DNA of 35,544 nt, taken from the NCBI GenBank assembly GCA_002772115.1, contig PCRW01000053.1, positions 1 to 35,544 of the forward strand, written 5' to 3'. This DNA is from Candidatus Moranbacteria bacterium CG23_combo_of_CG06-09_8_20_14_all_35_22 (GTDB lineage: Bacteria; Patescibacteriota; Minisyncoccia; Moranbacterales; UBA2206). Below, piece after piece: positions 5,319 to 29,126 of this stretch. The first letter of the stretch is position 1. Every line of letters begins with the position of its first letter. Below the pieces are notes generated by a model. The model worked only from the letters and a program-made list of their open reading frames with translations. It had not been told where the DNA came from and made no database searches. Position numbers and translations under genes: made by a program.

Positions 5319-6950
5319 TTAAAAAAACAAAACCCTTACCATCACCAGTCCATAAATAAAAATTATTCCCAAAACCGGCCAAAATATTAGGCGCGGTTTT
5401 ATTTTTAGCGAAGCCACAGAGAGAAATGCCAGTCCACCAAAAAACATTGCCCACCAAAAAAGTTTCAGTTCATTCAAGAAGAAAACACTGGCTATAAAAG
5501 AAATGAAAATTCCCGAAGCTACGATTAGGCGAGCTTTTTTTTCTCCAAAAATAACTGGGATTGTCCAAATATTATCTTTTTTATCGCCGGCGATATCTTT
5601 GAAATCTTTAATCGACAAAGAAATCGTTCCAACAATTAGCATTAGAAAAATAATTCTCGGCGACAAAGTATGAAAAGTTTGATTATCCGACATCAAAATA
5701 TAACCAAGAAATAAAATTAGAAGCAGAGCAAAAGAGCTGATAAAAGTGGCTACCAGCGGAAATTTTTTCAATCGGAAAGGCTGGGCGGAATAAACCCAAG
5801 CAACCACTTGGTAGGTGATAAGTAGCACAGCAAAAGAAAAACCGATTGAAATCCCGCCTAAAATCGAAAGAATAAAACAAGCCCAGCCTAAATTCGCATA
5901 TTCTTCTCGACTAAAAATTCCTTGCTGAAGCGGGCGCTCGGGATTGGAAATTGCGTCAATTGTAAAGTCATTAAGATCATTGACCACCACCGAAGCTTTC
6001 CATGCCAGCCAAACACTAATAAATAAAACGGCTACTGCCAAAAGAGAAAATAAATCCAATTTGAAATTCTGCTGATAATTCCAAGCCCCCACCGCTAACC
6101 CGATAAAAAGCAGTCCACTATGGTAAAAAAGCTGGGGATAACGAAAATTTTTGACCACGGCGATAAATTTCTTGCTATCCATCCGATAAAATAAAATTGC
6201 CAATAAACTTACCAGCGCAATATAATAGATAAAATCCAGTCGATAAGCTACGGCGTATTTGATGTTTTGAAAATTTATCCCCGCCATCTTGTCCAATGAA
6301 CCAAAAAATTCAAAGATTTCAAAAGCTTTTATATCTAAAAATTTTTTTGAACCAAAAATAAAATTATAAAGATAATAAAAAAAGGAAGGAAAGGCGCCGA
6401 GAAAAAACAAAATGGAATAAACTGCCCAGGCTGTAAATATAGATTTGAAAAAACTTTTCGTTCGAAACCAAACCAGAAAAAACAGCACCGCAACAGTGGC
6501 AACAAAAATTATTTTTGTACCAAAATAAACAATTGCACTGGGCAAATGCCCAAAAACCGTGGCATATTGCCAAAACAGATCTCGCGGAGTGCTGAAAAGA
6601 TAAAAACTCCAATAAACTTCTCCACCCGTTTTTATCATATCAATTAGCGGAGGAAAAGTCAGGAAAAGCAAAGAATAAATCAACACGCCGGAAAGTTTCT
6701 GGGGATTTTCCTTGAGAATTGCGCTCAAAAAAAGCCAAATTAGCAGTATCGCTAAAGAAAAAAAGTAAAAATTATGGATATATTCTATCACCGCTTCATA
6801 AGGTACTAGTGGTTTGACTAATGTTAAAAATTGCTCAATAAAACAACGGAAAAAAACCATTCCCAAAAACCCCAGTGTCCAAGTGGAAAGACCGACCCTT
6901 TTTTCTCCCAGCTTAATAAAGAAATTTTCCAGTTTATTCATAATTCCCAT
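5319..6950 (-). CDS. UbiA-family prenyltransferase domain fused to a ~290-aa N-terminal polytopic membrane domain
   Basis: C-terminal half has NDLNDFTIDAISNPERPLQQG (NDxxDxxxD..RPL) and KDFKDIAGDKKDNIWTIPVIFG (DxxDxxxD). Many TM helices throughout. First ATG at 6950; a TTG at 6962 and an ATG at 6941 are alternative starts. Confidence 0.7.
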   Translation of the reverse strand: MGIMNKLENFFIKLGEKRVGLSTWTLGFLGMVFFRCFIEQFLTLVKPLVPYEAVIEYIHNFYFFSLAILLIWLFLSAILKENPQKLSGVLIYSLLFLTFPPLIDMIKTGGEVYWSFYLFSTPRDLFWQYATVFGHLPSAIVYFGTKIIFVATVAVLFFLVWFRTKSFFKSIFTAWAVYSILFFLGAFPSFFYYLYNFIFGSKKFLDIKAFEIFEFFGSLDKMAGINFQNIKYAVAYRLDFIYYIALVSLLAILFYRMDSKKFIAVVKNFRYPQLFYHSGLLFIGLAVGAWNYQQNFKLDLFSLLAVAVLFISVWLAWKASVVVNDLNDFTIDAISNPERPLQQGIFSREEYANLGWACFILSILGGISIGFSFAVLLITYQVVAWVYSAQPFRLKKFPLVATFISSFALLLILFLGYILMSDNQTFHTLSPRIIFLMLIVGTISLSIKDFKDIAGDKKDNIWTIPVIFGEKKARLIVASGIFISFIASVFFLNELKLFWWAMFFGGLAFLSVASLKIKPRLIFWPVLGIIFIYGLVMVRVLFF

Positions 6951-9103: not shown

Positions 9104-9160
9104 AAAAAATTCCAATTTACAATTATCAATTTACAATTTTCAACCAATTTTCATTTTTCA
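9104..9160. repeat. Left arm of the AT-rich inverted repeat flanking the four-helix-bundle gene
   Basis: caatttacaattatcaatttacaattttcaaccaattttca is complementary to (attgaaa)x3 at 9516-9542. The 9-mer AAAATTCCA occurs at 9106-9114 and again at 9535-9543. Confidence 0.55.
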
Positions 9161-9517
9161 ATGATAAAATTTTCAAAACAATACGATTTAGAAAAAAGAA
9201 CTGGAGATTTCGGCATAGAAATCATAAAATTTTGTAAAACATCTCAACAAGATATTATAACAAAACCAATCTTAAACCAACTAATAAGATCGGGAACAAG
9301 TATTGGCGCTAATTATTGCGAAGCTAATAATGCCAGTTCTAAAAAAGATTTTAAGAATAAAATTTTTATCTGTAAAAAAGAATGTCAAGAAACAAAACAT
9401 TGGCTAAGGATGTCATCAGAATGTCTGCCTGAAAGAAAAGAAGAAATAAGAATTCTCTGGAAAGAATGTCAAGAGCTTACTATGATTTTCCAAAAAATAA
9501 TAAATTCTATGCAATAA
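9161..9517 (+). CDS. Four-helix-bundle protein ('23S rRNA-intervening-sequence protein' / Avd-like family)
   Basis: 118 aa. Hallmark blocks QLIRSGTSIGANYCEANNASSKKDFKNKIFICKKECQETKHWLRM, characteristic of this family. Confidence 0.85.
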   Translation: MIKFSKQYDLEKRTGDFGIEIIKFCKTSQQDIITKPILNQLIRSGTSIGANYCEANNASSKKDFKNKIFICKKECQETKHWLRMSSECLPERKEEIRILWKECQELTMIFQKIINSMQ

Positions 9518-9542
9518 TTGAAAATTGAAAATTGAAAATTCC
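9516..9542. repeat. Right arm: (attgaaa)x3 heptamer repeat
   Basis: aattgaaaattgaaaattgaaaattcc, the reverse complement of the caattttca motifs at 9135-9157. Confidence 0.55.
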
Positions 9543-9551
9543 ATAATACAC

Positions 9552-11771
9552 ATGTCTCAACAAACCCACATAAAAACAAATACCTATAAAATATTCCTAG
9601 TAATCTTTTTTCTTCTAGTGTTTGGTTTTGGGTTTGGGAAAGGGGAGAAGGCAAAGGCAGATGATGCAGATGATATTGGTGATTGTTCTTATAAATGTTC
9701 ATGGTATACACCTCTAGATAGTTTTGGCTATAAAAAAGAAGGAATTAAATCTAGTGAATGTTTTGACATATGTAAAAATCCAACAAAAAATGAATGCAAT
9801 GAAGATTTAATAGCTAAAGGTGATGGTTATTTTACACAACAGTATTGTTTATTTGATAAAGCTGGCGATTTTAGTCCTACCAAAACAGTACCGACATCTG
9901 GAAAATCCACCTCTTGTTCCGGCACAGATTGGGTATCCCACCCAGTAGACTGTTCTCTCCTTATGCTTCTTAATTTTTTTATATGGCTAATGCAATTAGC
10001 TAGTGCTCTCTTTGGCTGGATAATGGTTCCTGATAACATTACTACTATTCTTAGTAGTAAAGCAATTTACAACGCTTGGACATTAGTGCGCGATACGCTA
10101 AATGTTTTCTTTATTATGTTTTTGCTTTTTTCCGCTTTTGCCACCGTTTTTCAAATTGACAAATACAGCTACAAAAAAACACTATTAATGATTGTCCTTA
10201 TGGCGCTTTTAGTCAATTTTAGCTTCCCAATTTCTCGATTTATCATCGATATTTCCAATATGATGATGTTTTATTTTGCCAGCGCTTTAGATATTCCCAT
10301 TGAAGATGGAAAAATAATGGTTGGTTTTGCCAGTGCCGCTAAATTACCGGGAATTCTTTATCAAAATCTAGGCAATGCCGGAACAGCTCTACTTGCAGCC
10401 GTTATTTTTGTTTTTATTTTCACCGTAACTATCTTGACTATTTCCGTTCTTTTCCTTATTCGCACCATTGCCTTGGCAATTTTAATTGTTTTTTCTTCGC
10501 TGGCTTTTGTCGGCACTGCCATTCCACCACTTTCTTCTTATGCCAGTGACTGGTGGAAGAAACTTTTCAGTTATGCTTTTTTTGGACCAGTGATGCTTTT
10601 TATGATGTATATTGCATCATATTTAATGAATGAGATTGGAAGCACAGGAACAGCTACTATGGAAAAAATCGCCACCGCAAATTCAACAATTCCAGAATTA
10701 ATTGCTAATATGTCTTTTTTTGCCATCCCGATCGTCCTTCTTTGGCTCGGTCTCGGTGTCGCTCAATCAATGAGCATCGCCGGCGCCAGCATGGTCGTCG
10801 GCAAAGCGCAAGGGTTCATGAAAGGGGCAGGGAAGTGGACAGCAGGAGCACCTTGGAAAGTTGCTAAAATGTCTGGTATCCCAGGTGGAGCACAAGCGGG
10901 CTGGAAAAATTTCAGAAAAACTGGAAAATTATTTGGTGGAAAAGTGCCTCTTTATGGCGGATCTGACGCACAAGAAGCAAGAGAAGCAAAATTTGGTGGA
11001 GTATTTAAAGATGGTAGAAAGGGTTGGACAGAGGCTAAAGTTGAACTAGAAAGAACAAGAGCAAATAAACTTAGAAAAGATTGGAAAGATCAAGGCGCTA
11101 TTGATAAAGATTCTGTTTATAAAAAATTGGAAAGTACGAATCCAACAGAACAAAAAGCTGCTGCTCTAGAAATAGCTGAAAATCATAGTTTTGAAAGTTA
11201 TGAACAATTCAAAAAAGCTTCCACAGCTATCGGCAATGATCCTGTTTTCAAAAAAATATTTGATGATAAAGCAAAAGAAAAACATATTAACTTTGTTGCT
11301 AAAGCTAAAATTGAGGAGGAAGAGAAAAAAACAGGAAAACCTCTTAATTATAATGAAAAACAAGACATTTACAATGAACATTTTGATAAGCTTGATAATA
11401 AGAAATGGGCTTCTCAAATAAATCTAATGCCAAAAGACGAAAAGGGTAAGCCATTAGAAGAAAGTGAATTTGTCAAAGAATATATCAAAGAAAATATTGC
11501 GTCACATTACCCCACTCATCAAGATATTTTCAAAAATCTAAAAGGCGTCAATAAAAAACAATGGGCTGATGCGGGTTTAGCGCCAACTGAAAAAAGAAAT
11601 AGCGATGAAACATCTCAATCCGCTAGAAGCAATGAAGATATTCAAAGAGAAATGAAACAAAAAAATCAAGAAAGAATGGATAATGAAAATGAATTCAAAC
11701 AATCACATGAAGACATACAAAAAGAAAGAGCAAGAAAAGCACAAGAAGAAATAAATAAACAAAATATTTAA
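9552..11771 (+). CDS. VirB6/TrbL-like polytopic membrane protein with a Cys-rich exodomain and a long Lys/Glu-rich C-terminal tail
   Basis: Signal/TM, then a Cys-rich ~100-aa segment, about 7 TM helices and a ~300-aa highly charged tail. Sits upstream of the PrgI-like and VirB4 genes. The call rests on topology and context, not on a recognised motif. ATG at 9552 preferred over the TTG at 9525, which lies in the repeat. Confidence 0.5.
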   Translation: MSQQTHIKTNTYKIFLVIFFLLVFGFGFGKGEKAKADDADDIGDCSYKCSWYTPLDSFGYKKEGIKSSECFDICKNPTKNECNEDLIAKGDGYFTQQYCLFDKAGDFSPTKTVPTSGKSTSCSGTDWVSHPVDCSLLMLLNFFIWLMQLASALFGWIMVPDNITTILSSKAIYNAWTLVRDTLNVFFIMFLLFSAFATVFQIDKYSYKKTLLMIVLMALLVNFSFPISRFIIDISNMMMFYFASALDIPIEDGKIMVGFASAAKLPGILYQNLGNAGTALLAAVIFVFIFTVTILTISVLFLIRTIALAILIVFSSLAFVGTAIPPLSSYASDWWKKLFSYAFFGPVMLFMMYIASYLMNEIGSTGTATMEKIATANSTIPELIANMSFFAIPIVLLWLGLGVAQSMSIAGASMVVGKAQGFMKGAGKWTAGAPWKVAKMSGIPGGAQAGWKNFRKTGKLFGGKVPLYGGSDAQEAREAKFGGVFKDGRKGWTEAKVELERTRANKLRKDWKDQGAIDKDSVYKKLESTNPTEQKAAALEIAENHSFESYEQFKKASTAIGNDPVFKKIFDDKAKEKHINFVAKAKIEEEEKKTGKPLNYNEKQDIYNEHFDKLDNKKWASQINLMPKDEKGKPLEESEFVKEYIKENIASHYPTHQDIFKNLKGVNKKQWADAGLAPTEKRNSDETSQSARSNEDIQREMKQKNQERMDNENEFKQSHEDIQKERARKAQEEINKQNI

Positions 11772-11781
11772 AAAAAATATA

Positions 11782-12900
11782 ATGTTAGATACTCAAACAA
11801 AAATAATTAGAAGTTGTTATTTTCCTATGATGGTTTCTAAATATACTGGGAGAGATGATTCTAGTGAAGAAATTTTAGAAAGATGGGAGAAATTTGATCT
11901 GCTTTCAGAAGATAATAAAGATTTGTTAATTTCAGAACATATAGCTATCACAATAAGAAAACTATGTTTAAATTTTTCCTTATCTATTGAATCATCAAGA
12001 AAAATTTCCCGGGCTATTCGCAGTTTTTATTTTGGAGAAATTCAACTACAAGATTTTCCGCAGATATTATCCAAAGAAATGAATGTTGATTTTGCCACGG
12101 CGCAAAAAATATCTGAAGTTATTATCCAAAAAATAATCAACGATGATTCTCAAGAAAAAGCCTACCAAGCCCAGCTGGAAAAATTACCCCTTTCCAGCGC
12201 CATTCAAAAATTCCCCCCTCTTGGCGAACAACTACTTACTTCGGCGAAAATTAAGCTAAAAAATTTCCCAGAACCGGTCCGGCCGTCGATCAATAATTGG
12301 CTTTCCGATTATACTTTTAGTCTTGGCTATGAGTCGCATAGCGCCATGGATCGTGGAACATATCTTTTTAGAAACGAAAATGCCCGACTGCTAAATTCCA
12401 TGGATCGAGAAAAGCTTTCCTATCTTTTGAAAGCTTATGATGAAAACTCACCCGTGGACATCAACATCAACACCAGCCAAATAATTTTCCCGAGACACGA
12501 AACAAGGAACAGTGAACAAGGAACAGTGAACAATATTCAAAGAACAATAAACAATGAACAACGAGCAAGAATCAATGATCAAAGAACAATAATCAACGAG
12601 CAACGAACAACGAGCAATAATAATTCTGTTTTATCGCAACCAAAATCTCCCTTTCAAGAAATATATAATGCCAAACCACAAGCAACTCAACCCAAAGATA
12701 TTTTCGAAGAAGAAAGAACAGCCACCCAAAAAAGAAACACCGCCAATTTGAGTTTCAGTTCTCCACAAAAATTTCCTTATGAAAAACAAACTATCCAACA
12801 GCAAAAAACGCCTCAAGGTCCCGAACCCTTACATATCTCCTCCCAAAAACTCCGCCATGACCCAGTCCCGCCGGGAAATGTTGTCAATTTAAAAAACTAG
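11782..12900 (+). CDS. Hypothetical cytoplasmic protein with a low-complexity Asn/Gln/Arg/Thr-rich C-terminal half
   Basis: 372-aa ORF, 10 nt after the previous stop. No TM helices and no recognised family. Confidence 0.45.
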   Translation: MLDTQTKIIRSCYFPMMVSKYTGRDDSSEEILERWEKFDLLSEDNKDLLISEHIAITIRKLCLNFSLSIESSRKISRAIRSFYFGEIQLQDFPQILSKEMNVDFATAQKISEVIIQKIINDDSQEKAYQAQLEKLPLSSAIQKFPPLGEQLLTSAKIKLKNFPEPVRPSINNWLSDYTFSLGYESHSAMDRGTYLFRNENARLLNSMDREKLSYLLKAYDENSPVDININTSQIIFPRHETRNSEQGTVNNIQRTINNEQRARINDQRTIINEQRTTSNNNSVLSQPKSPFQEIYNAKPQATQPKDIFEEERTATQKRNTANLSFSSPQKFPYEKQTIQQQKTPQGPEPLHISSQKLRHDPVPPGNVVNLKN

Positions 12901-13024
12901 GCTTTACTAAATACGAAATAAGCTAAATACTAAAAAATCCTTTCGTATTTCGTTTATTTCGTATTTGGTAAAACTTAGTATTTAGTAAAATTTAGTATTT
13001 CGTTTATTTCGTATTTAGTAAAAC
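12901..13024. repeat. 124-bp intergenic repeat unit A (tactaaatacgaaataagc family)
   Basis: The left arm tttactaaatacgaaataagctaaatactaaa pairs with tttagtatttcgtttatttcgtatttagtaaa. The unit starts right after the stop codon and ends 6 nt before the next ATG. Confidence 0.85.
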
Positions 13025-13030
13025 AATAAA

Positions 13031-13426
13031 ATGTTATTTAACGTCCCACAATTCATCGACATCGAAGATAAGATTGTTGGTCCACTTACCGCCAAGCAAC
13101 TTGGCTGGCTGGGCATTGCCGGCGTTTTGCTTTTGATTTTCTGGAGCACGCTCACTTTTTCCACTTTTCTTCCGCTGGCTTTCATCACACTGGGAATTTT
13201 TGGTGCGTTGGCATTTTACCGACCGTACAACCAACCCCTTTTGAATTTTTTGATGTCAGGCGTAAATTTTTTTCTAAAACCAAAAATCTATGTTTGGAAG
13301 CGATATTATGATAGTATGAAAGCAGTCAAAAAAACTGAAAAAACAACCGAAGAAATTATTGTCAAAAGAAAAGTTTTAGATAATAAAAAATTAGAAGAAT
13401 TGGCGAAAAGACTAAATCAGAAATAG
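13031..13426 (+). CDS. PrgI family protein (VirB3-like small T4SS membrane component)
   Basis: MLFNVPQFIDIEDKIVGPLTAKQLGWLGIAG followed by two TM helices is the characteristic PrgI-family N-terminus. Lies upstream of VirB4. Confidence 0.75.
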   Translation: MLFNVPQFIDIEDKIVGPLTAKQLGWLGIAGVLLLIFWSTLTFSTFLPLAFITLGIFGALAFYRPYNQPLLNFLMSGVNFFLKPKIYVWKRYYDSMKAVKKTEKTTEEIIVKRKVLDNKKLEELAKRLNQK

Positions 13427-13550
13427 GCTTTACTAAATACGAAATAAGCTAAATACTAAAAAATTCTTTCGTATTTCGTTTATTTCGTATTTAGTAAAAC
13501 TTAGTATTTAGTAAAATTTAGTATTTCGTTTATTTCGTATTTAGTAAAAC
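13427..13550. repeat. 124-bp intergenic repeat unit B
   Basis: Identical to unit A at 122 of 124 positions (hand alignment), in direct orientation. Confidence 0.85.
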
Positions 13551-13554
13551 ATTT

Positions 13555-14244
13555 ATGGAATTTCTACACTCAAAAAAACTCTCCACCGAACCATCATCTT
13601 CACCTACTCAAAAATATTTGGATGTAGCCGAAGTGAAAGATGATGTGATTGTTTTGAAATCGGGCGCTCTGCGTTCCATTTTGGCTGTGTCCGCTATAAA
13701 TTTTGATCTAAAATCCACTGACGAACAAGAAGCTATCATTTCTCAATATCAAAATTTTCTCAACTCCGTCGATTTTCCAGTGCAAATTTTGATCAGCTCA
13801 AGAAAATTAGATATGCGAAATTATTTTGAATTTATCACTAGCAAAGAAAAAACTCAATCTAGCGAACTTCTCCGACTTCAACTTAGCGAGTATAAAAATT
13901 TCATTGAACAATTAGTCAAGGGCTCGGATATTATGGAAAAAAATTTCTACATCATCGTGCCATTTTCACCGATTGAAAATAAAAAAAAAAGTTTTTTCTC
14001 TAACATTGGCAGTTTATGGAACCCCCAAAAAAACATTTTAGAAAAAAGAGAGAATTTTGAAACTTATAAAAATCAACTCCTCCAAAGAATTGATCACATC
14101 ATCGCCGCTTTGTCTGGCATCGGTCTGCGCATTGTTCCCCTCAAGACTGAAGAACTAATTGAATTGTTATTTGATTCATACAATCCGGAAATTTTCAACG
14201 CCACCGGATTGAAAGATGTGAGTAAATTAGAACTAACGAAATAG
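13555..14244 (+). CDS. Hypothetical T4SS-associated cytoplasmic protein (possible ATPase-less VirB4 N-domain-like protein)
   Basis: 229 aa, no TM helix and no Walker motifs. The segment YLDVAEVKDDVIVLKSGALRSILAVSAINFDLKSTDEQEAIISQYQNFLNSVDFPVQILI resembles the pattern at the N-terminus of VirB4/TrbE/TraC proteins (from memory). Confidence 0.4.
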   Translation: MEFLHSKKLSTEPSSSPTQKYLDVAEVKDDVIVLKSGALRSILAVSAINFDLKSTDEQEAIISQYQNFLNSVDFPVQILISSRKLDMRNYFEFITSKEKTQSSELLRLQLSEYKNFIEQLVKGSDIMEKNFYIIVPFSPIENKKKSFFSNIGSLWNPQKNILEKRENFETYKNQLLQRIDHIIAALSGIGLRIVPLKTEELIELLFDSYNPEIFNATGLKDVSKLELTK

Positions 14245-14352
14245 TCCTTTACTAAATACGAAATAAGCGAAATACGAAAGAATTGTTTTTTTAGTATTTA
14301 GTTTATTTAGTATTTAGTAAAATTTAGTATTTCGCTCATTTCGTAGTTCATA
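14245..14352. repeat. Intergenic repeat unit C (diverged member of the same family)
   Basis: tcctttactaaatacgaaataagcgaaatacgaaag ... tttagtatttagtaaaatttagtatttcgctcatttcgtag. Confidence 0.7.
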
Positions 14353-14360
14353 AAGAAATT

Positions 14361-16199
14361 ATGTTAAATATATTCAAAAAAAACACTCCTTCCTCCAACG
14401 CACCCGTCAAGCCGGCTAAGCCGAAAAATGAAATTTTGGAGTCGGAAAAATATTATCAAGAAGGCGTTTCTCGTCTCAATGATCTTTTGGCACCGGCTGC
14501 GATAAAAATAATGCCTAGATTTATTCGCGTGGGAGAAACTTTAGCACAAACTATTTTTGTGGTGGCTTATCCAAGATTTCTCAACAGTAATTGGTTTTCT
14601 CCCATTATAAACATTGATCTACCGATTGATATTTCAATGTTCATCCACCCCATTGAAACTTATGATATTTTGAAAGATCTCAAAAAAAATGCTACCCGTG
14701 TTGAATCCCAAATTCACATTGAACAAGAAAAAGGGATGATCAACGACCCAGCCTTGGAAACAGCCAAACAAGATATTGATGAATTGCGAAGTAATCTCCA
14801 GCAAGGCACGGAAAAGTTTTTCCGTTTTGGGCTCTACATCACTGCCTACGGTGAAAATGAAAAAGAATTATCCGACATCTCCCGTTCCATCGAAGCAATT
14901 TTGGAAGCCCAACTGGTTTATGTTAAGCCGGCCATTTTCAAATCCGAACAAGGCTTCAATTCCACTCTTCCGCTGGCAAATGACGAATTGGATATTGGAA
15001 GTAGTATGAACAGCGCTCCGCTTTCTACCACTTTCCCTTTTGTTTCTTCCACCCTTTCTTCCAATGAAGGCATTCTTTATGGCATAAATCGCCATAACAA
15101 TAGTTTGATTATTTTTGACCGTTTCAAAATGGAAAATGCCAATATGGTAGTTTTTGCTAAATCTGGTGCTGGAAAAAGTTATACGATAAAATTGGAAGTT
15201 TTGCGCTCACTAATGATGGGAACGGATGTGATCATAATTGATCCGGAAAATGAATATAAACATTTGTGCGAAACTGTCAATGGCACTTTTATAAAAATTT
15301 CCCTCAATTCTAATAATCATCTCAACCCATTTGACCTTCCGCACATCAAAGAAGACGAGGATCCTGAAGATGTCCTTCGCAACAACATCGCCAATCTTTT
15401 GGGGCTACTGCATATTATGCTGGGCAACATCACCCCCGAAGAAGATTCAATCTTGGGCCGAGCCATCAAAGAAACTTATGCTGTCCGCGACATTTCTCCT
15501 CAAACTGATTTCAATGCTCTTTCCAAAGAATCTTATCCGACAATGTCTGATTTGTATCAAATTTTGCGCAGTATGGATGGCGGAGAAAATTTGGCCATTC
15601 GAATGGAAAAATATACAGAGGGAATTTTTTCTGGCTTTCTTAATAATGTCACCAATGTGAGCGTGGACAATCAAATGATGGTTTTCAATATCCGCGATAT
15701 GGAAGAAGAACTTCGACCAATTGCGATGTATATTGTGATGCAATTTATCTGGAATGAAATGCGCACCACTCTCAAAAAAAGAATTGTCTTGGCGGATGAA
15801 GCTTGGGTAATGATGAAATATGATGACGCCGCTTCTTTTATGTTCGGTATTGCTAAACGATGTCGAAAATATTATACGGGCCTCACCACCGTCACTCAAG
15901 ATGTTAATGACTTTTTGAGTTCTCGCTATGGTAAAGCGATTGTGACAAATTCCTCTATTCAACTGCTTTTGAAACAATCACCAGCCGCTGTTGATGTCAT
16001 CAGTGAAACCTTTTACCTGACCGATCAAGAAAAATTTTTGCTTTTAGAATCAAATGTAGGAGAAGGAATTTTTTTCGCCGGCACCAAACATGTCGCCATT
16101 AAGGTTGTCGCTTCCTATTCCGAAGACCAGATAATCACCACCGATCCCTCGCAACTACTGGAAATTGAAAAAGCTAAGAAAGAGTTGGAAGAAGAATAA
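14361..16199 (+). CDS. virB4: VirB4/TrbE/PrgJ-type T4SS ATPase
   Basis: 612 aa. Walker A FAKSGAGKSYT, IIDPENEY, Walker B IVLADEAWVMM. N-terminal domain with YPRFLNSNWFSPII block as in Gram-positive VirB4 homologues. Confidence 0.9.
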   Translation: MLNIFKKNTPSSNAPVKPAKPKNEILESEKYYQEGVSRLNDLLAPAAIKIMPRFIRVGETLAQTIFVVAYPRFLNSNWFSPIINIDLPIDISMFIHPIETYDILKDLKKNATRVESQIHIEQEKGMINDPALETAKQDIDELRSNLQQGTEKFFRFGLYITAYGENEKELSDISRSIEAILEAQLVYVKPAIFKSEQGFNSTLPLANDELDIGSSMNSAPLSTTFPFVSSTLSSNEGILYGINRHNNSLIIFDRFKMENANMVVFAKSGAGKSYTIKLEVLRSLMMGTDVIIIDPENEYKHLCETVNGTFIKISLNSNNHLNPFDLPHIKEDEDPEDVLRNNIANLLGLLHIMLGNITPEEDSILGRAIKETYAVRDISPQTDFNALSKESYPTMSDLYQILRSMDGGENLAIRMEKYTEGIFSGFLNNVTNVSVDNQMMVFNIRDMEEELRPIAMYIVMQFIWNEMRTTLKKRIVLADEAWVMMKYDDAASFMFGIAKRCRKYYTGLTTVTQDVNDFLSSRYGKAIVTNSSIQLLLKQSPAAVDVISETFYLTDQEKFLLLESNVGEGIFFAGTKHVAIKVVASYSEDQIITTDPSQLLEIEKAKKELEEE

Positions 16200-16278
16200 G
16201 TTTTACTAAATACCCGCCTCGACTCGCAAGACGATTGCTCGTCGACGCGAGGCTGGCGAAATAAGCTAAATACTAAAG
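16200..16278. repeat. Left arm of repeat unit D, itself interrupted by a 44-nt GC-rich hairpin (16214-16257)
   Basis: ttttactaaatac[ccgcctcgactcgcaagacgattgctcgtcgacgcgaggctggc]gaaataagctaaatactaaag. The bracketed insert recurs at 29047-29091. Confidence 0.8.
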
Positions 16279-16665
16279 ATGATAAAGAAAATTGATTTGA
16301 TTTATGCTGATGAATGTTATGAAATAATGGGAATAGCTTTCGATGTTTTTAAGAAATTAGGATTTGGTCATAAAGAAAATATTTATCAGAAAGCGCTAGC
16401 AACTAATTTTAAAGAAAGAAATTTTAAATTTAAAGAACAGTTGCGATACAATTTGAAATACAAGGATGAAACTTTGGGAGTTTATATTTTAGATTTTTTG
16501 CTTTTTGATAAAATTGTTTTGAAAATAAAACAAAAGGATTTCATTTCTGAAAAAGATATAGATCAAGTTTATAGGTATCTTAGAGCCACGCATTTAAAGC
16601 TCGGAATAATACTTACTTTTACCAAAAAAGGTGCCTGTTTTAAAAGAATAGTTAATTTAAAATAA
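16279..16665 (+). CDS. GxxExxY family protein (PD-(D/E)XK nuclease-like superfamily)
   Basis: 128 aa. Literal motif G-HK-E-NI-Y in FGHKENIYQKAL, and YILDFLLFDKIVLKIK as in this family. Confidence 0.85.
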   Translation: MIKKIDLIYADECYEIMGIAFDVFKKLGFGHKENIYQKALATNFKERNFKFKEQLRYNLKYKDETLGVYILDFLLFDKIVLKIKQKDFISEKDIDQVYRYLRATHLKLGIILTFTKKGACFKRIVNLK

Positions 16666-16700
16666 TTTTAGTATTTCGTTTATTTCGTATTTAGTAAAAC
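16666..16700. repeat. Right arm of repeat unit D
   Basis: ttttagtatttcgtttatttcgtatttagtaaaac, identical to the right arm of units A and B and complementary to 16203-16278. Confidence 0.8.
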
Positions 16701-16701
16701 T

Positions 16702-17211
16702 ATGTCTTACGACCCACAAAAACAAAAAAATCTTCATAATGAACGGCAAACTGACCAAGCTGAAAAAGAAAAAGAGGCGAGTGATTCAGAAAAAGAAAAA
16801 TCGCCCCAAAAACCCCGCCGTTCTTTGGGAAATTTAGCCAAAAAAATTCTACCACCGATTTCCCAAATGAAATTTTCCGATTCGGCTATTTTTGTCGCTC
16901 TTGGTGCTGCCGGATTTAAGGATTTACTCGATTTAATCTCCTTAACTGGCATAGGTTATTTTCTTGTAATAATTATGACCTTTCTGATTTTTATCTTTAT
17001 CGGCTTTATGATCCTTTTGACCATTATGTCGGGCGGAGGGGGAGGATTCTGGATACTACTGATACTTTTTGGCGGAGCTGGCATAGAACTTCTACCCGGT
17101 ATAGATTTTCTACCTGTTACAATGGCCACTGTAATTATGATTTATCTTAGAATTTTATCCAAAAGAAGAAAGAACCAAGAAAAAATGCAAGCCCAAGAAA
17201 GCTACGCTTAA
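16702..17211 (+). CDS. Small membrane protein with a charged N-terminal tail, 3-4 TM helices and a poly-Gly loop
   Basis: 169-aa ORF. Lys/Glu-rich N-terminus, hydrophobic core with a GGGGGF loop, basic C-terminus. No family recognised. Confidence 0.45.
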   Translation: MSYDPQKQKNLHNERQTDQAEKEKEASDSEKEKSPQKPRRSLGNLAKKILPPISQMKFSDSAIFVALGAAGFKDLLDLISLTGIGYFLVIIMTFLIFIFIGFMILLTIMSGGGGGFWILLILFGGAGIELLPGIDFLPVTMATVIMIYLRILSKRRKNQEKMQAQESYA

Positions 17212-17218
17212 CTGGAAA

Positions 17219-17256
17219 TTGGAGACTAAATCTCCAATTGGAGATTTAGTCTCCAA
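17219..17256. repeat. 38-nt perfect palindrome TTGGAGACTAAATCTCCAATTGGAGATTTAGTCTCCAA, copy 1
   Basis: Verified by hand as its own reverse complement. Identical 38-mer at 23280-23317. Confidence 0.9.
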
Positions 17257-17271
17257 AGTTTCCAAAAAACC

Positions 17272-17943
17272 ATGCAACATTATCCTAAAAAAAATCTATC
17301 CTCTTTTCTGCTGGAAAATAAAGAAACTGTCATCACTTCTTTGGTGATTGTTTTTTGTCTAGCTTTATCTGTTTTTTTTCCAACAAAAAATTCTGCCCAA
17401 CTTTTCACGAGCAATATTTTTTTCTTAGTTATTATTCCGATTCTTTATTATAAATTAATTTTAAAAAGAAAAATATCGGAACTAGGTTTGGTATTAAATG
17501 ACAAAAAAATTGGATTTTTTTGGGGAGCTTTGATGTTTCTTGTCAATCTGATAATTTTTTATCTTCTTTATCAGTTTACCGATTTTAACCACAATTATCT
17601 TCTTTCCTCCTATATTGTGCATAACTTTTGGATTTTCCTGTTTTATGAGATTTTAGTGGCTAATATGTTTGTTTTTATCCAAGAATTTTTTTGGCGAGGC
17701 TTTATTTTACTTTATTTTTCTAGAAAAATTGGCCTTTTGGCGATTTTTTTGCAATTTATTATTTTTGTAGGAGTGATACTTCTAATCTCACAAAATTCTT
17801 TTTGGCAAATGGCGCCCACTCTCGTAATTTCTCTAACTTCTGGTATAATTGTATATAAGAGCCGATCAATTTTTTATTCTTGGATTTTTTCCTTACTGTC
17901 AATTTTAATTTTAGATAGTTTTATAATTTATCATTTAAAATGA
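17272..17943 (+). CDS. CPBP (CAAX protease/Abi)-like polytopic membrane protein with degenerate catalytic motifs
   Basis: IQEFFWRGFIL resembles CPBP motif 1 (EExxxR), but with QE. The positions expected for the FxxxH and HxxxN motifs carry no His. About 6-7 TM helices. Confidence 0.4.
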   Translation: MQHYPKKNLSSFLLENKETVITSLVIVFCLALSVFFPTKNSAQLFTSNIFFLVIIPILYYKLILKRKISELGLVLNDKKIGFFWGALMFLVNLIIFYLLYQFTDFNHNYLLSSYIVHNFWIFLFYEILVANMFVFIQEFFWRGFILLYFSRKIGLLAIFLQFIIFVGVILLISQNSFWQMAPTLVISLTSGIIVYKSRSIFYSWIFSLLSILILDSFIIYHLK

Positions 17944-23271: not shown

Positions 23272-23325
23272 GAGACAACTTGGAGACTAAATCTCCAATT
23301 GGAGATTTAGTCTCCAAGTTGTCTC
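23272..23325. terminator. 54-nt perfect palindrome (38-mer copy 2 extended by gagacaac/gttgtctc) between convergent operons
   Basis: Lies between the stop of the + locus (23269) and the stop of the - glycan cluster (23330). No canonical U-tract, so a terminator role is inferred from position only. Confidence 0.55.
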
Positions 23326-27614: not shown

Positions 27615-29030
27615 TTATTTTTTGCTAATTATGCTCATTATTTCTTCAGTCTTAACTACTTGGAATATCCAAATAAATAGACCGTAGACGGCCGTAGCGG
27701 AAAAAGCCAATAAGAAAAAATTTATTTCCTTAAAGATAAAGCAATAAACTGTCATAAAAAATCCCGCTAATAAAATCGCCCAAAACTTTTCTATTTTTGG
27801 AAAATATTTCAACTCCTTGATGATTATATAAAAAGCTGTCAAAGCCACAAACATTTCCGTCGCTACTGAAATAATCGCTGACGCCAAATAAGAATAGTGC
27901 GGGATAAAAATCAGATTGGCAGACACATTGAAAATTGCCGCCAAGGACATAATAAACATTAATTTTTTTTGCTTGTTACTAGAAATTAAAACGACATTAA
28001 AAAGATTACTGAAAAATATACAGCTCAAGGAAAAAACTAAAATCCGAAGCACTATTACAGAAGCACTAAAACCTTGCCCACCAATAAGTTCAACGATTCC
28101 CTCTGCTAAAAACAGCGTGCCAACAACCAGCGGAACAATAATAATCCAAAAAACTTTGAGTGTTCGGTTAGTAATATCATAAAAGCGCATTTTATCAGAA
28201 AAAATATTTTTGGATATTATTGGAAAAACCAAACCAGCTATCATGGCTGGGAAAAAAGTTATATTTTCAATTACTTTATAAGCCACATTGTAAATTCCTA
28301 CTTCTGCCCCAGTTTTCAAAATAGACAGCAAAATTGTGTCTATTTTAAAATAAATAAAACTAATAACAGCGGCAATGCCTAGCGGATATGACTCTTTTAA
28401 AAATTTTTTCCAATAAATAAAATCGAATTTCAAGGAAAAAGAAACATATTTTTTTGACCAAAAATAAATCAAAGAAAAACTGCAAAGCATATTCAATAAA
28501 AGCGAAAAAATTATCCAAAGAAAACTAAGCTCAAACTTAATCGCGTAAAAAATAAATATTACTTGGATAATTTTCCCTAAAAGCTCTGCCATTGCCACCT
28601 TATCCATCGCCAAGTTTTTTTGAAATATCCCATTTAACACTTGATAGGAGGAGGAAAAAACAAAAGACAGCGCCACTATAACAATCGCTTGCTTAACTTC
28701 CGCTGGGTAAGGAAAGAAAAAAACAATTATCGGCGAAAAAACAAAAACAAATAATGAAATTATCGCTCTTAGAGAAAAAATATTCCCAATAATTTCTTTC
28801 TCATTATTTTCGGGACGAGAAATTTCCCGCGTAACTGTGGAATAAAGTCCTAAATCAGCTATGGCAGTGAAGAAAGATAAGAAAGCCAGCACGGTAGCAT
28901 AATTGCCAAAACCTTCTTGACCCAGATATCGGGTAATTAGGCCAATAGAAACGAGCGCCAAAATTGTCGAGAAAATTTTGGCAGTACTGCTAAAAACAAC
29001 ATTATAAGCTATTTTTCTGGCGATAACCAT
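27615..29030 (-). CDS. Wzx-like polysaccharide flippase (MOP superfamily)
   Basis: 471 aa, about 12-14 TM helices. The N-terminal AYNVVFSSTAKIFSTILALVSIGLITRYLGQEGFGNY pattern is typical of polysaccharide biosynthesis/flippase proteins. Confidence 0.8.
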   Translation of the reverse strand: MVIARKIAYNVVFSSTAKIFSTILALVSIGLITRYLGQEGFGNYATVLAFLSFFTAIADLGLYSTVTREISRPENNEKEIIGNIFSLRAIISLFVFVFSPIIVFFFPYPAEVKQAIVIVALSFVFSSSYQVLNGIFQKNLAMDKVAMAELLGKIIQVIFIFYAIKFELSFLWIIFSLLLNMLCSFSLIYFWSKKYVSFSLKFDFIYWKKFLKESYPLGIAAVISFIYFKIDTILLSILKTGAEVGIYNVAYKVIENITFFPAMIAGLVFPIISKNIFSDKMRFYDITNRTLKVFWIIIVPLVVGTLFLAEGIVELIGGQGFSASVIVLRILVFSLSCIFFSNLFNVVLISSNKQKKLMFIMSLAAIFNVSANLIFIPHYSYLASAIISVATEMFVALTAFYIIIKELKYFPKIEKFWAILLAGFFMTVYCFIFKEINFFLLAFSATAVYGLFIWIFQVVKTEEIMSIISKK

Positions 29031-29046
29031 AGAGTTTACGAACTAC

Positions 29047-29091
29047 CCGCCTCGACTCGCGAAGACGATTGCTCGTCGACGCGAGGCGGGC
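29047..29091. repeat. 45-nt GC-rich hairpin, second copy of the 16214-16257 element
   Basis: ccgcctcgactcgcgaagacgattgctcgtcgacgcgaggcgggc, again followed by gaaataa and preceded by ...actac. The same host-repeat context as at 16200. Confidence 0.8.
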
Positions 29092-29126
29092 GAAATAAAC
29101 GAAAATACGAAAAGTTAAAATTATAG

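Follow-up and report, generated by a model that had tools for sequence, protein, structure and literature searches.

The 35,544-nt contig of a Candidatus Moranbacteria genome analysed here (hereafter the window; GC content ~34%) carries on its + strand a type IV secretion-like operon, in which a 501-nt palindromic insertion, element D, encloses a small gene of the GxxExxY nuclease family between two inverted arms. Comparisons across genomes show that D is an insertion into a stop/start junction of this conserved operon, that arms and open reading frame (ORF) are inherited together, and that the hairpin content of such junctions turns over rapidly between close relatives. The explanation that we favour, with a probability of about 0.55, is that D is one copy of a selfish palindromic element, built like the intervening sequences (IVSs) of 23S rRNA and accompanied by miniature gene-less derivatives.

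The operon genes are arranged in the order 372-aa gene (11782–12900), PrgI (13031–13426), VirB4 N-terminal part (13555–14244), VirB4 C-terminal part (14361–16199) and 169-aa gene (16702–17211), followed by an Rce1-like gene and further operon genes, and one repeat family occupies each of the four junctions among the first five. The first three junctions hold gene-less hairpins (units A, B and C; Table 1), and D fills the fourth, from the TAA of the VirB4 C-part to the t-ATG of the 169-aa gene. D is laid out as TTTACTAAATAC, a GC-rich hairpin, CGAAATAAGCTAAATACTAAA, a single g, the GxxExxY ORF, a single t and a right arm of the R2 type, which ends 1 nt ahead of the next ATG. Excluding the nested hairpin, the left arm is 32 nt long, and the right arm 34 nt. 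When D is folded as RNA, the minimum-energy and centroid structures both pair the left arm with R2, with the ORF between them. The arm sequences occur in 8 copies each in the window and in none of its shuffled versions.

The original prediction, made from the window alone, had placed the ORF tightly between the arms, which is correct to the nucleotide: a single nucleotide separates the ATG from the left arm, and another the stop codon from the right arm. It had equated the arms of D with those of units A and B, which holds for the right arm (100% identical), whereas the left arm is split by the 44-nt GC-rich hairpin. The ~60 nt separating the arms of A and B had been read as a loop but contain another right arm, R1, 6 nt past the left arm L, and a 16-nt partial arm, the hairpin being L:R1 with a loop of 4–6 nt. 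Unlike units A–C, D has no R1 arm. The recurrence of the arms in A and B had been recognized, while unit C, the R1 copies and a split arm at 29035–29112 had been overlooked.

For a wider comparison, species-representative genomes were scanned, yielding 80 loci with 57 non-redundant evaluable GxxExxY ORFs, and the 70 nt before each ATG were compared with the 70 nt after the stop codon. Of the 57 GxxExxY ORFs, 82% had inverted-repeat flanks (score of at least 25); of 503 control ORFs taken from these loci, 6% did (Mann-Whitney p = 7e-27 for the difference). The arm-bearing loci span the candidate phyla radiation (CPR), Bacteroidota and archaeal metagenome-assembled genomes (MAGs), and their contexts are unrelated. 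Median values are 33 nt for the length of the arms and 4 nt each for the distance from the upstream arm to the ATG and from the stop codon to the downstream arm. The word TACGAA is present in 39 of the 57 upstream and 44 of the 57 downstream flanks, with words spaced 7–8 nt apart; the word differs by lineage (TACTAA, TACAAA, TACGGA), and both arms shift together. The GxxExxY gene is co-directional with its upstream neighbor at 50 of 53 loci and with its downstream neighbor at 49 of 50, and the intergenic gaps around it, ~45 nt, correspond to the arm alone. None of the GxxExxY genes in the fetched loci lies within an rRNA gene.

Several observations link each pair of arms to the gene between them. 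Arm pairing scores are 32 for arms of the same locus and 19.5 for arms of different loci, a locus's own partner arm ranks among the top 3 of 57 at 28 loci, and above 60% protein identity the similarity of the arms climbs with that of the proteins. In BLAST comparisons of the window with elements of other genomes, the alignment spans the ORF and both arms (16257–16698) at ~72% identity. The nearest homolog with long contigs (P0003, Moranbacteria; 69% identity) lies between glycosyltransferase and radical-SAM genes; its upstream arm is TTTACGAACTACGAAAAAAACGAAATACGAAA and its downstream arm TTTCGTATTTCGCTAAATTCGTAGTTCGTAAA. No sampled GxxExxY gene exceeds 72% identity to the window copy. Because arms and ORF vary together across genomes, the arms belong to the element of the gene and not to the host locus.

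Individual loci add some variation. Arm arrays can be compound, as shown by L019 (3881–4420), where the order is L, a 26-nt loop, R1, 27 nt including GGAGG, the GxxExxY gene, 12 nt, R2 and the next ATG. At L022 (4001–4351) the GxxExxY copy is a pseudogene with an in-frame stop codon and arms still flanking it. Several Moranbacteria-like MAGs are labeled 'uncultured Bdellovibrionales', 'Saccharibacteria' or 'Gammaproteobacteria', labels that are probably wrong.

The insertion itself is documented by orthologous operons. We compared the junctions of the window with those of four syntenic operons, whose VirB4 C-part orthologs are 93, 93, 88 and 87% identical to that of the window, and of the metagenome contig L128, which is 92.6% identical to the window in DNA sequence over 3.2 kb (Table 2). 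The 501 nt of D are absent from the orthologous VirB4 C-part junction in L093 and L094 and replaced by other sequences in L128 and L092. The unoccupied state is a tight stop/start junction that is colonized independently by different hairpin families. The words of the L092 hairpin match the arms of the 23S_rRNA_IVP gene at the first junction of the same operon; the gene-less hairpins of a genome share their words with its resident ORF-bearing element. The empty-site comparison that the original prediction had proposed therefore returned sites free of any insertion (L093, L094) but none with the same hairpin intact, and in no relative compared does the hairpin of the window stand empty at this junction. 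Unrelated flanks at other GxxExxY genes combined with a lack of empty sites, the outcome that had been named as contrary to the prediction, is not what was found.

Table 2. Content of four operon junctions in the window and in relatives
Locus	372-aa gene/PrgI	PrgI/VirB4 N-part	VirB4 N-part/C-part	VirB4 C-part/next gene
Window	unit A	unit B	unit C	501-nt element D
L128	CACTGAT-word hairpin	TACTAAA hairpin, 98.5% identical to that of the window	different TACGAAT-word hairpin	unrelated 104-nt gene-less hairpin, CACTGAT/CACATGA words
L092	IVP gene, CAATGAA-word arms	70-nt spacer, similar words	empty (4 nt)	91-nt gene-less hairpin, CAATGAA words
L093	empty	empty	empty	TAA-att-ATG (all four junctions -1 to 4 nt)
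L094	IVP gene	10 nt	7 nt	TAA-ct-ATG
L096	10 nt	2 nt	8 nt	42 nt, R-arm-like remnant at end

Two of these junctions bear marks of their own. In L128 (2895–2992) the upstream 370-aa ORF runs three codons into the arm and ends at a TGA within it (VVNLKDQNH* compared with VVNLKN* in the window); the insertion at the 370-aa gene/PrgI junction replaced the native stop codon. The 42-nt spacer of L096 (5822–5863) between the VirB4 C-part and the next gene ends in atttcgtatttcataaac, close to the R2' arm of unit C, and may be, judging by this resemblance, the remnant of a lost element. A further candidate empty site, L001, was set aside: its sequence is that of the window as far as 16508, where it passes into an unrelated gene; its coverage is 1.8x, and it is probably chimeric.

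Gene-less members of the family greatly outnumber gene-bearing ones. When metagenomes were scanned with the 21-nt left-arm core, 46 non-redundant occurrences were obtained: in 31 the partner arm lies within 60 nt, giving short-loop gene-less hairpins; three have larger loops, some holding a nested GC-rich hairpin; ten lack a partner arm; in one case the pairing partner is the arm of a neighboring hairpin ~600 nt away; and one (L113) flanks a GxxExxY gene, so that the ratio of gene-less to gene-bearing copies is ~30:1. Many of the metagenome hairpins come after a terminator-like stem and end 3–8 nt before an ATG. Gene-less TACGAA hairpins were also found in the genome loci L019, L023, L028, L031, L056, L060 and L074.

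The GC-rich hairpin that splits the left arm of D is an imperfect palindrome of ~44 nt (CCCGCCTCGACTCGCGAAGACGAttgcTCGTCGACGCGAGGCGGG), which in arms always lies between ...TAC and CGAAAT.... Copies are present in the window at 16214–16256 and 29048–29092 and in L001, L023 (95–130), L025 (399–434), L100 (~6650–6690), L103, L132 (~970–1008) and L139; those of L023 and L025 sit outside any arm. This palindrome resembles a further, smaller element with the arms as its target. The copy at 29048–29092 belongs to a half element, in which it occupies the same split position as in D (Table 1).

Table 1. Coordinates of element D, related elements and host genes in the window
Feature	Coordinates	Strand	Description
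Whole element D	16200..16700	+	palindromic insertion GTTTTAC...GTAAAAC, 501 nt
Left arm, 5' part (TTTACTAAATAC)	16202..16213	+	exact match to left arm of units A and B
Nested GC-rich hairpin, ~44 nt	16214..16256	+	inserted in left arm of D, splitting the arm
Left arm, 3' part (CGAAATAAGCTAAATACTAAA)	16257..16277	+	100% identity with units A and B
GxxExxY / PD-(D/E)XK_3 ORF, 128 aa	16279..16665	+	profile matches; K replaces near-invariant E82
Right arm, R2 type	16667..16700	+	matches R2 of units A and B at 100% identity; 94% complementary to left arm
VirB4-like ATPase, C-terminal part (host gene)	14361..16199	+	stop codon abuts D; orthologs 87–93% identical
169-aa host gene	16702..17211	+	kept downstream of VirB4 in relatives
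Unit A, gene-less hairpin	12903..13024	+	L 12903–12934, 6-nt loop, R1 12941–12974, partial arm 12975–12990, R2 12991–13024
Unit B, gene-less hairpin	13429..13550	+	layout of unit A, between PrgI and VirB4 N-part
Unit C, gene-less hairpin	14248..14355	+	L, ~10-nt loop, R1, R2'; between VirB4 N-part and C-part
Half element	29035..29112	-	right-type arm with GC-rich hairpin at same split position, 3 nt upstream of ATG of 27615–29030 (minus)
Palindromic IVP element	9107..9543	+	23S_rRNA_IVP ORF 9161–9517 between own arms of CAATTTA / TTGAAAA words

The identification of the enclosed gene as GxxExxY, a PD-(D/E)XK-type nuclease family, was confirmed by profile matches to PF13366 (7e-28, 97.8 bits, cut-off 22) and TIGR04256 (4e-28, 98.2 bits, cut-off 35). 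PF13366 was the sole match in a Pfam scan of the ORF, which returned no Y1_Tnp. The motif of the window copy reads G30-H-K-E33-N-I-Y36, and E33 is invariant in 117 of 117 homologs, among which E33, D72, E82 and K84 are essentially invariant. E82 is the catalytic residue of the D...(D/E)xK motif. It is kept in 116 of the 117, and the window copy alone has K at this position (codon 82, 16522–16524, is AAA and not GAA), with D72 and K84 retained. Judging by this substitution, the window copy is probably catalytically inactive and decaying.

An AlphaFold model built from 34 homologs (pLDDT, the predicted local distance difference test, of 91) has a minimal alpha-alpha-beta-beta-beta-alpha-beta-beta PD-(D/E)XK fold. 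Its Foldseek neighbors are Cas4, lambda-type exonucleases, tRNA-splicing endonucleases, Hjc and RecU, with TM-scores of ~0.45–0.55, matches too generic to be diagnostic. No solved structure was matched in a sequence search of the PDB, viral contigs contained no relatives of the gene, and PHROG returned no match; assignment to a defense system was rejected, as the only PADLOC match was marginal (0.0018). The family comprises 15,475 clusters at 50% identity (E <= 1e-3), and the one survey found to mention it (PMC3424549) gives its function as 'unknown'. Many members are 250–280 aa long with two GxxExxY domains (for example P0249, P0255 and P0269), and others are fused to larger proteins. These two-domain and fused proteins could be tandem insertions or read-through fusions with neighboring genes.

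A second ORF-bearing element of the same construction is present in the operon that carries D. It lies between a 303-aa and a 748-aa gene and encodes a protein of the 23S_rRNA_IVP family (PF05635, 2.8e-15). The gene that follows it probably starts at the ATG at 9552 and not at the TTG at 9525 chosen by the ORF tool. IVP-family ORFs of L025, L034, L045, L080, L092 and L094 have the same arm layout, each with a different word. IVP genes have been noted between cmr3 and cmr2, where they were not read as insertions (PMC3936711), and IVP ORFs also occur within CPR rRNA insertions (PMC11270868). One fetched locus (L078) holds a gene of the Y1_Tnp family, similar to the REP-associated tyrosine transposases (RAYTs) of repetitive extragenic palindromic (REP) sequences, with its own palindromes; it looks unlike the GxxExxY elements.

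In the mechanism that we envisage, the promoterless GxxExxY nuclease gene, enclosed by ~33-nt inverted arms of iterated 7–8-nt TAC(G/T)AAA words, would owe its expression to read-through from the host operon. Once transcribed, the arms would form a ~32-bp double-stranded RNA stem and close the ORF in its loop, as in the 23S rRNA IVSs. Double-stranded RNA of 32 bp is a standard substrate of RNase III, and on this ground and by analogy with the IVSs we give stem formation followed by RNase III cleavage about an even chance. The nuclease, in turn, might recognize its own arm words and promote the spread of the element or of its gene-less derivatives, as is thought for RAYTs with REPs and REPINs. 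This step is proposed tentatively; its one support is the association of GxxExxY genes with TACGAA words, kept from CPR to Bacteroidota and archaeal MAGs, with different words at IVP genes.

A number of points weigh against a selfish element propagated by its own nuclease. Known transposases do not, to our knowledge, include a 128-aa hydrolytic nuclease, and the literature reports no activity for any PF13366 member. Filled and empty junctions show no recognizable target-site duplication or defined insertion footprint, the junction sequences having diverged. Among the mismatches of 47 arm pairs, 28 are G:U and 35 are A:C on the sense strand, that is, without an excess of G:U, and there is no positive sign of selection on RNA structure over constraint from DNA or protein binding. 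The data throughout are metagenome assemblies. Finally, hairpins of this kind also hold genes of the unrelated 23S_rRNA_IVP family, and the two types of ORF could be passengers while something else mobilizes the hairpins.

This last point leads to the idea that all hairpin word families are moved in trans by another enzyme, such as a Y1 transposase of the IS200/RAYT type, or by host recombination, with the GxxExxY and IVP ORFs as passengers or addiction-type cargo. It would explain why unrelated PF13366 and PF05635 proteins share one architecture, why several word families stand side by side in one operon, and how the arms of D could stay perfect while its gene lost E82; the RAYT-like gene with palindromes in L078 would offer an example of such an enzyme. 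The fidelity of TACGAA-type words to GxxExxY genes across CPR, Bacteroidota and archaeal MAGs, when IVP genes use other words, is hard to reconcile with it, as is the lack of a transposase gene near the elements in the window, and we consider it quite unlikely. Alternatively, the hairpins may be the primary repeats and the GxxExxY ORF a cassette that, like a homing endonuclease gene, copies itself into their loops with the arms as homology. The original prediction had offered this insertion of the gene into hairpin loops as one of three readings, and part of it fits: the arms of D match those of the gene-less units A and B at 100%, whereas identity to the nearest sampled GxxExxY genes does not exceed 72%, gene-less hairpins are ~30 times more common, unit B is shared with L128 and hence older than D, and the order L-R1-gene-R2 in L019 suggests a variable position of the ORF in the arm array. 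However, in none of the relatives is the same hairpin empty at the VirB4 C-part junction (the hairpins of L128 and L092 are unrelated and L093 and L094 have none), and ORF and both arms co-diverge between genomes, at ~72% throughout. The identity of the arms of D to those of A and B thus favors recent exchange within the genome, and the co-divergence between genomes favors inheritance as a unit; on balance, a homing cassette is unlikely.

It is also conceivable, if very improbable, that the hairpins are RNA elements of benefit to the host (RNase III sites, stabilizers or start-region switches between L:R1 and L:R2), in one of which a gene is merely tolerated. Their stems are very stable (z-scores of -5 to -7.7), the right arm ends 1–6 nt before the next ATG at every unit, unit B folds as L:R2 and unit A as L:R1, and the genome lacks Shine-Dalgarno sequences. 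Yet the operons of L093 and L094 work hairpin-free and those of L128 and L092 with unrelated hairpins, the arms have no G:U bias, and the arms at GxxExxY genes elsewhere would be left unexplained. The related proposal in the original prediction, that the hairpin regulates the gene, fails as the main account, as most hairpins of the family are gene-less and they are absent or replaced in otherwise identical operons. Of its three readings, arms as the terminal inverted repeats of the gene is the best supported, by the contrast of 82% with 6%, by alignments that extend into both arms and by the absence of the 501 nt in relatives.

The gene-less units and their surroundings were characterized in the window. 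Units A and B are 98% identical over 131 nt and consist of a 32-nt L, a 6-nt loop, a 34-nt R1, a 16-nt partial right arm and R2, with the next ATG following in 4–6 nt (that of PrgI, at 13031, just past unit A). Folded as RNA, the gene-less units form stems of ~32 bp, with a folding energy of -38.6 kcal/mol and a z-score of -7.7 for unit A. VirB4 is split into a TraC-like N-part of 229 aa and an ATPase C-part of 612 aa, each an ORF of its own; every relative examined has the same split, and unit C, situated between the two parts, is thus not its cause. Several window genes begin 1–6 nt past a right arm. Shine-Dalgarno-like sequences are nearly absent upstream of the window genes, whose leaders are AU-rich, and their absence before the GxxExxY ATG is therefore uninformative. 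Rfam (at gathering thresholds) and ARAGORN gave no match in the window, and no rRNA. In a consensus scan of 12700–17400, promoter and terminator sites were no more frequent than in shuffled sequences, and a role of the arms as sigma-70 promoters or intrinsic terminators is accordingly not obvious.

Other repeats in the window include a palindrome family, GGAGACTAAATCTCC aatt GGAGATTTAGTCTCC, forming perfect stems as long as 25 bp, at 17216–17259 and 23272–23325, directly after the genes ending at 17211 and 23269; these palindromes may be terminators or another repeat family. A tandem heptamer, TACAAAT x3, resembling the arm words, is present at 1220–1246 within the ORF 1016–1555.

In the literature on GxxExxY, PF13366, TIGR04256 and PF05635 we found no description of the arms, and none of a function for GxxExxY/PF13366. 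The arm architecture thus appears undescribed; it is ordinary as a single locus and notable family-wide. The wrapping by arms, the sense orientation at junctions and the gain and loss between near-identical operons together provide a first concrete testable hypothesis for PF13366, and they tie the GxxExxY family to the 30-year-old puzzle of the 23S rRNA intervening sequences and their IVP ORFs. Curated family notes may draw a parallel between TIGR04256 and the IVS-protein family. A more sweeping claim, which we hold to be rather doubtful, is that GxxExxY proteins are the dedicated nucleases of a large unrecognized class of hairpin elements, a PD-(D/E)XK counterpart of RAYT/REPIN with the IVP-type IVSs as a sister class. 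If it were true, recognition of TACGAA arms would drive gene-bearing and miniature hairpins into operon stop/start junctions of CPR, Bacteroidota and some archaea, and two large families of unknown function, of which PF13366 alone has more than 15,000 clusters, would gain a function. In practical terms, the findings suggest that small ORFs within conserved operons, such as the IVP gene between cmr3 and cmr2 (PMC3936711), are better interpreted as junction invaders than as parts of the system, and extended or fused neighboring ORFs and the hairpin-rich junctions of CPR genomes may be footprints of GxxExxY-type elements.

Two known arrangements with repeats were considered and rejected. Integron attC sites are defined by RYYYAAC...GTTRRRY cores at each cassette 3' end with an integrase nearby; here, arms with TACGAA words stand on both sides, the neighbors are those of a syntenic operon, and no integrase was present among the scanned window ORFs. 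TIGR-Tas arrays have 36-nt or stem-loop units with box C/D motifs and an adjacent Nop-domain Tas protein (PMC12045711), whereas the period of the arms is 7–8 nt and not 36, the arms are palindromic, and no neighboring ORF gave a Tas-like match.

Other systems share more with D. Homing endonuclease genes, including the PD-(D/E)XK enzyme I-Ssp6803I, likewise place a nuclease ORF in a structured element with occupied and empty alleles, but D has no self-splicing intron or intein, and its relatives occupy many unrelated junctions and not one conserved target. Miniature inverted-repeat transposable elements (MITEs) and their autonomous insertion-sequence parents also have terminal inverted repeats, abundant gene-less miniatures and a presence that varies among relatives; no target-site duplication is visible at the diverged junctions of D, which differs from them in having no recognizable transposase and in being confined to stop/start junctions with a strong orientation bias. 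With REP/REPIN-RAYT systems (PMC3733652) D shares a small gene between inverted copies of a palindromic repeat that is also dispersed gene-less, mostly between co-directional genes. The terminal ...CGTAG of many GxxExxY arms is reminiscent of the GTAG tag of REPs, although the arms of the window end in GTAAAAC. Unlike RAYTs, GxxExxY proteins have a PD-(D/E)XK and not an HUH/Y1 fold, their genes are multi-copy per genome, and their arms are AT-rich repeated words of ~33 nt. The 23S rRNA IVSs of Coxiella burnetii and Leptospira, with their S23p/23S_rRNA_IVP ORF, resemble D in build: the size is similar (~430–500 nt), a terminal-repeat stem of ~28–32 bp closes a loop with one small ORF, the distribution is sporadic and apparently horizontal, and short gene-less versions exist. 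The Coxiella IVS, of 428–444 nt, has a 28-bp terminal-inverted-repeat stem around its ORF and is cut by RNase III (PMC4990558). D departs from the IVSs in its location, between operon protein genes instead of in helix 9, 25 or 45 of 23S rRNA, in its cargo, a PD-(D/E)XK protein instead of the four-helix-bundle IVP, and in its arms, which are made of iterated 7–8-nt words.

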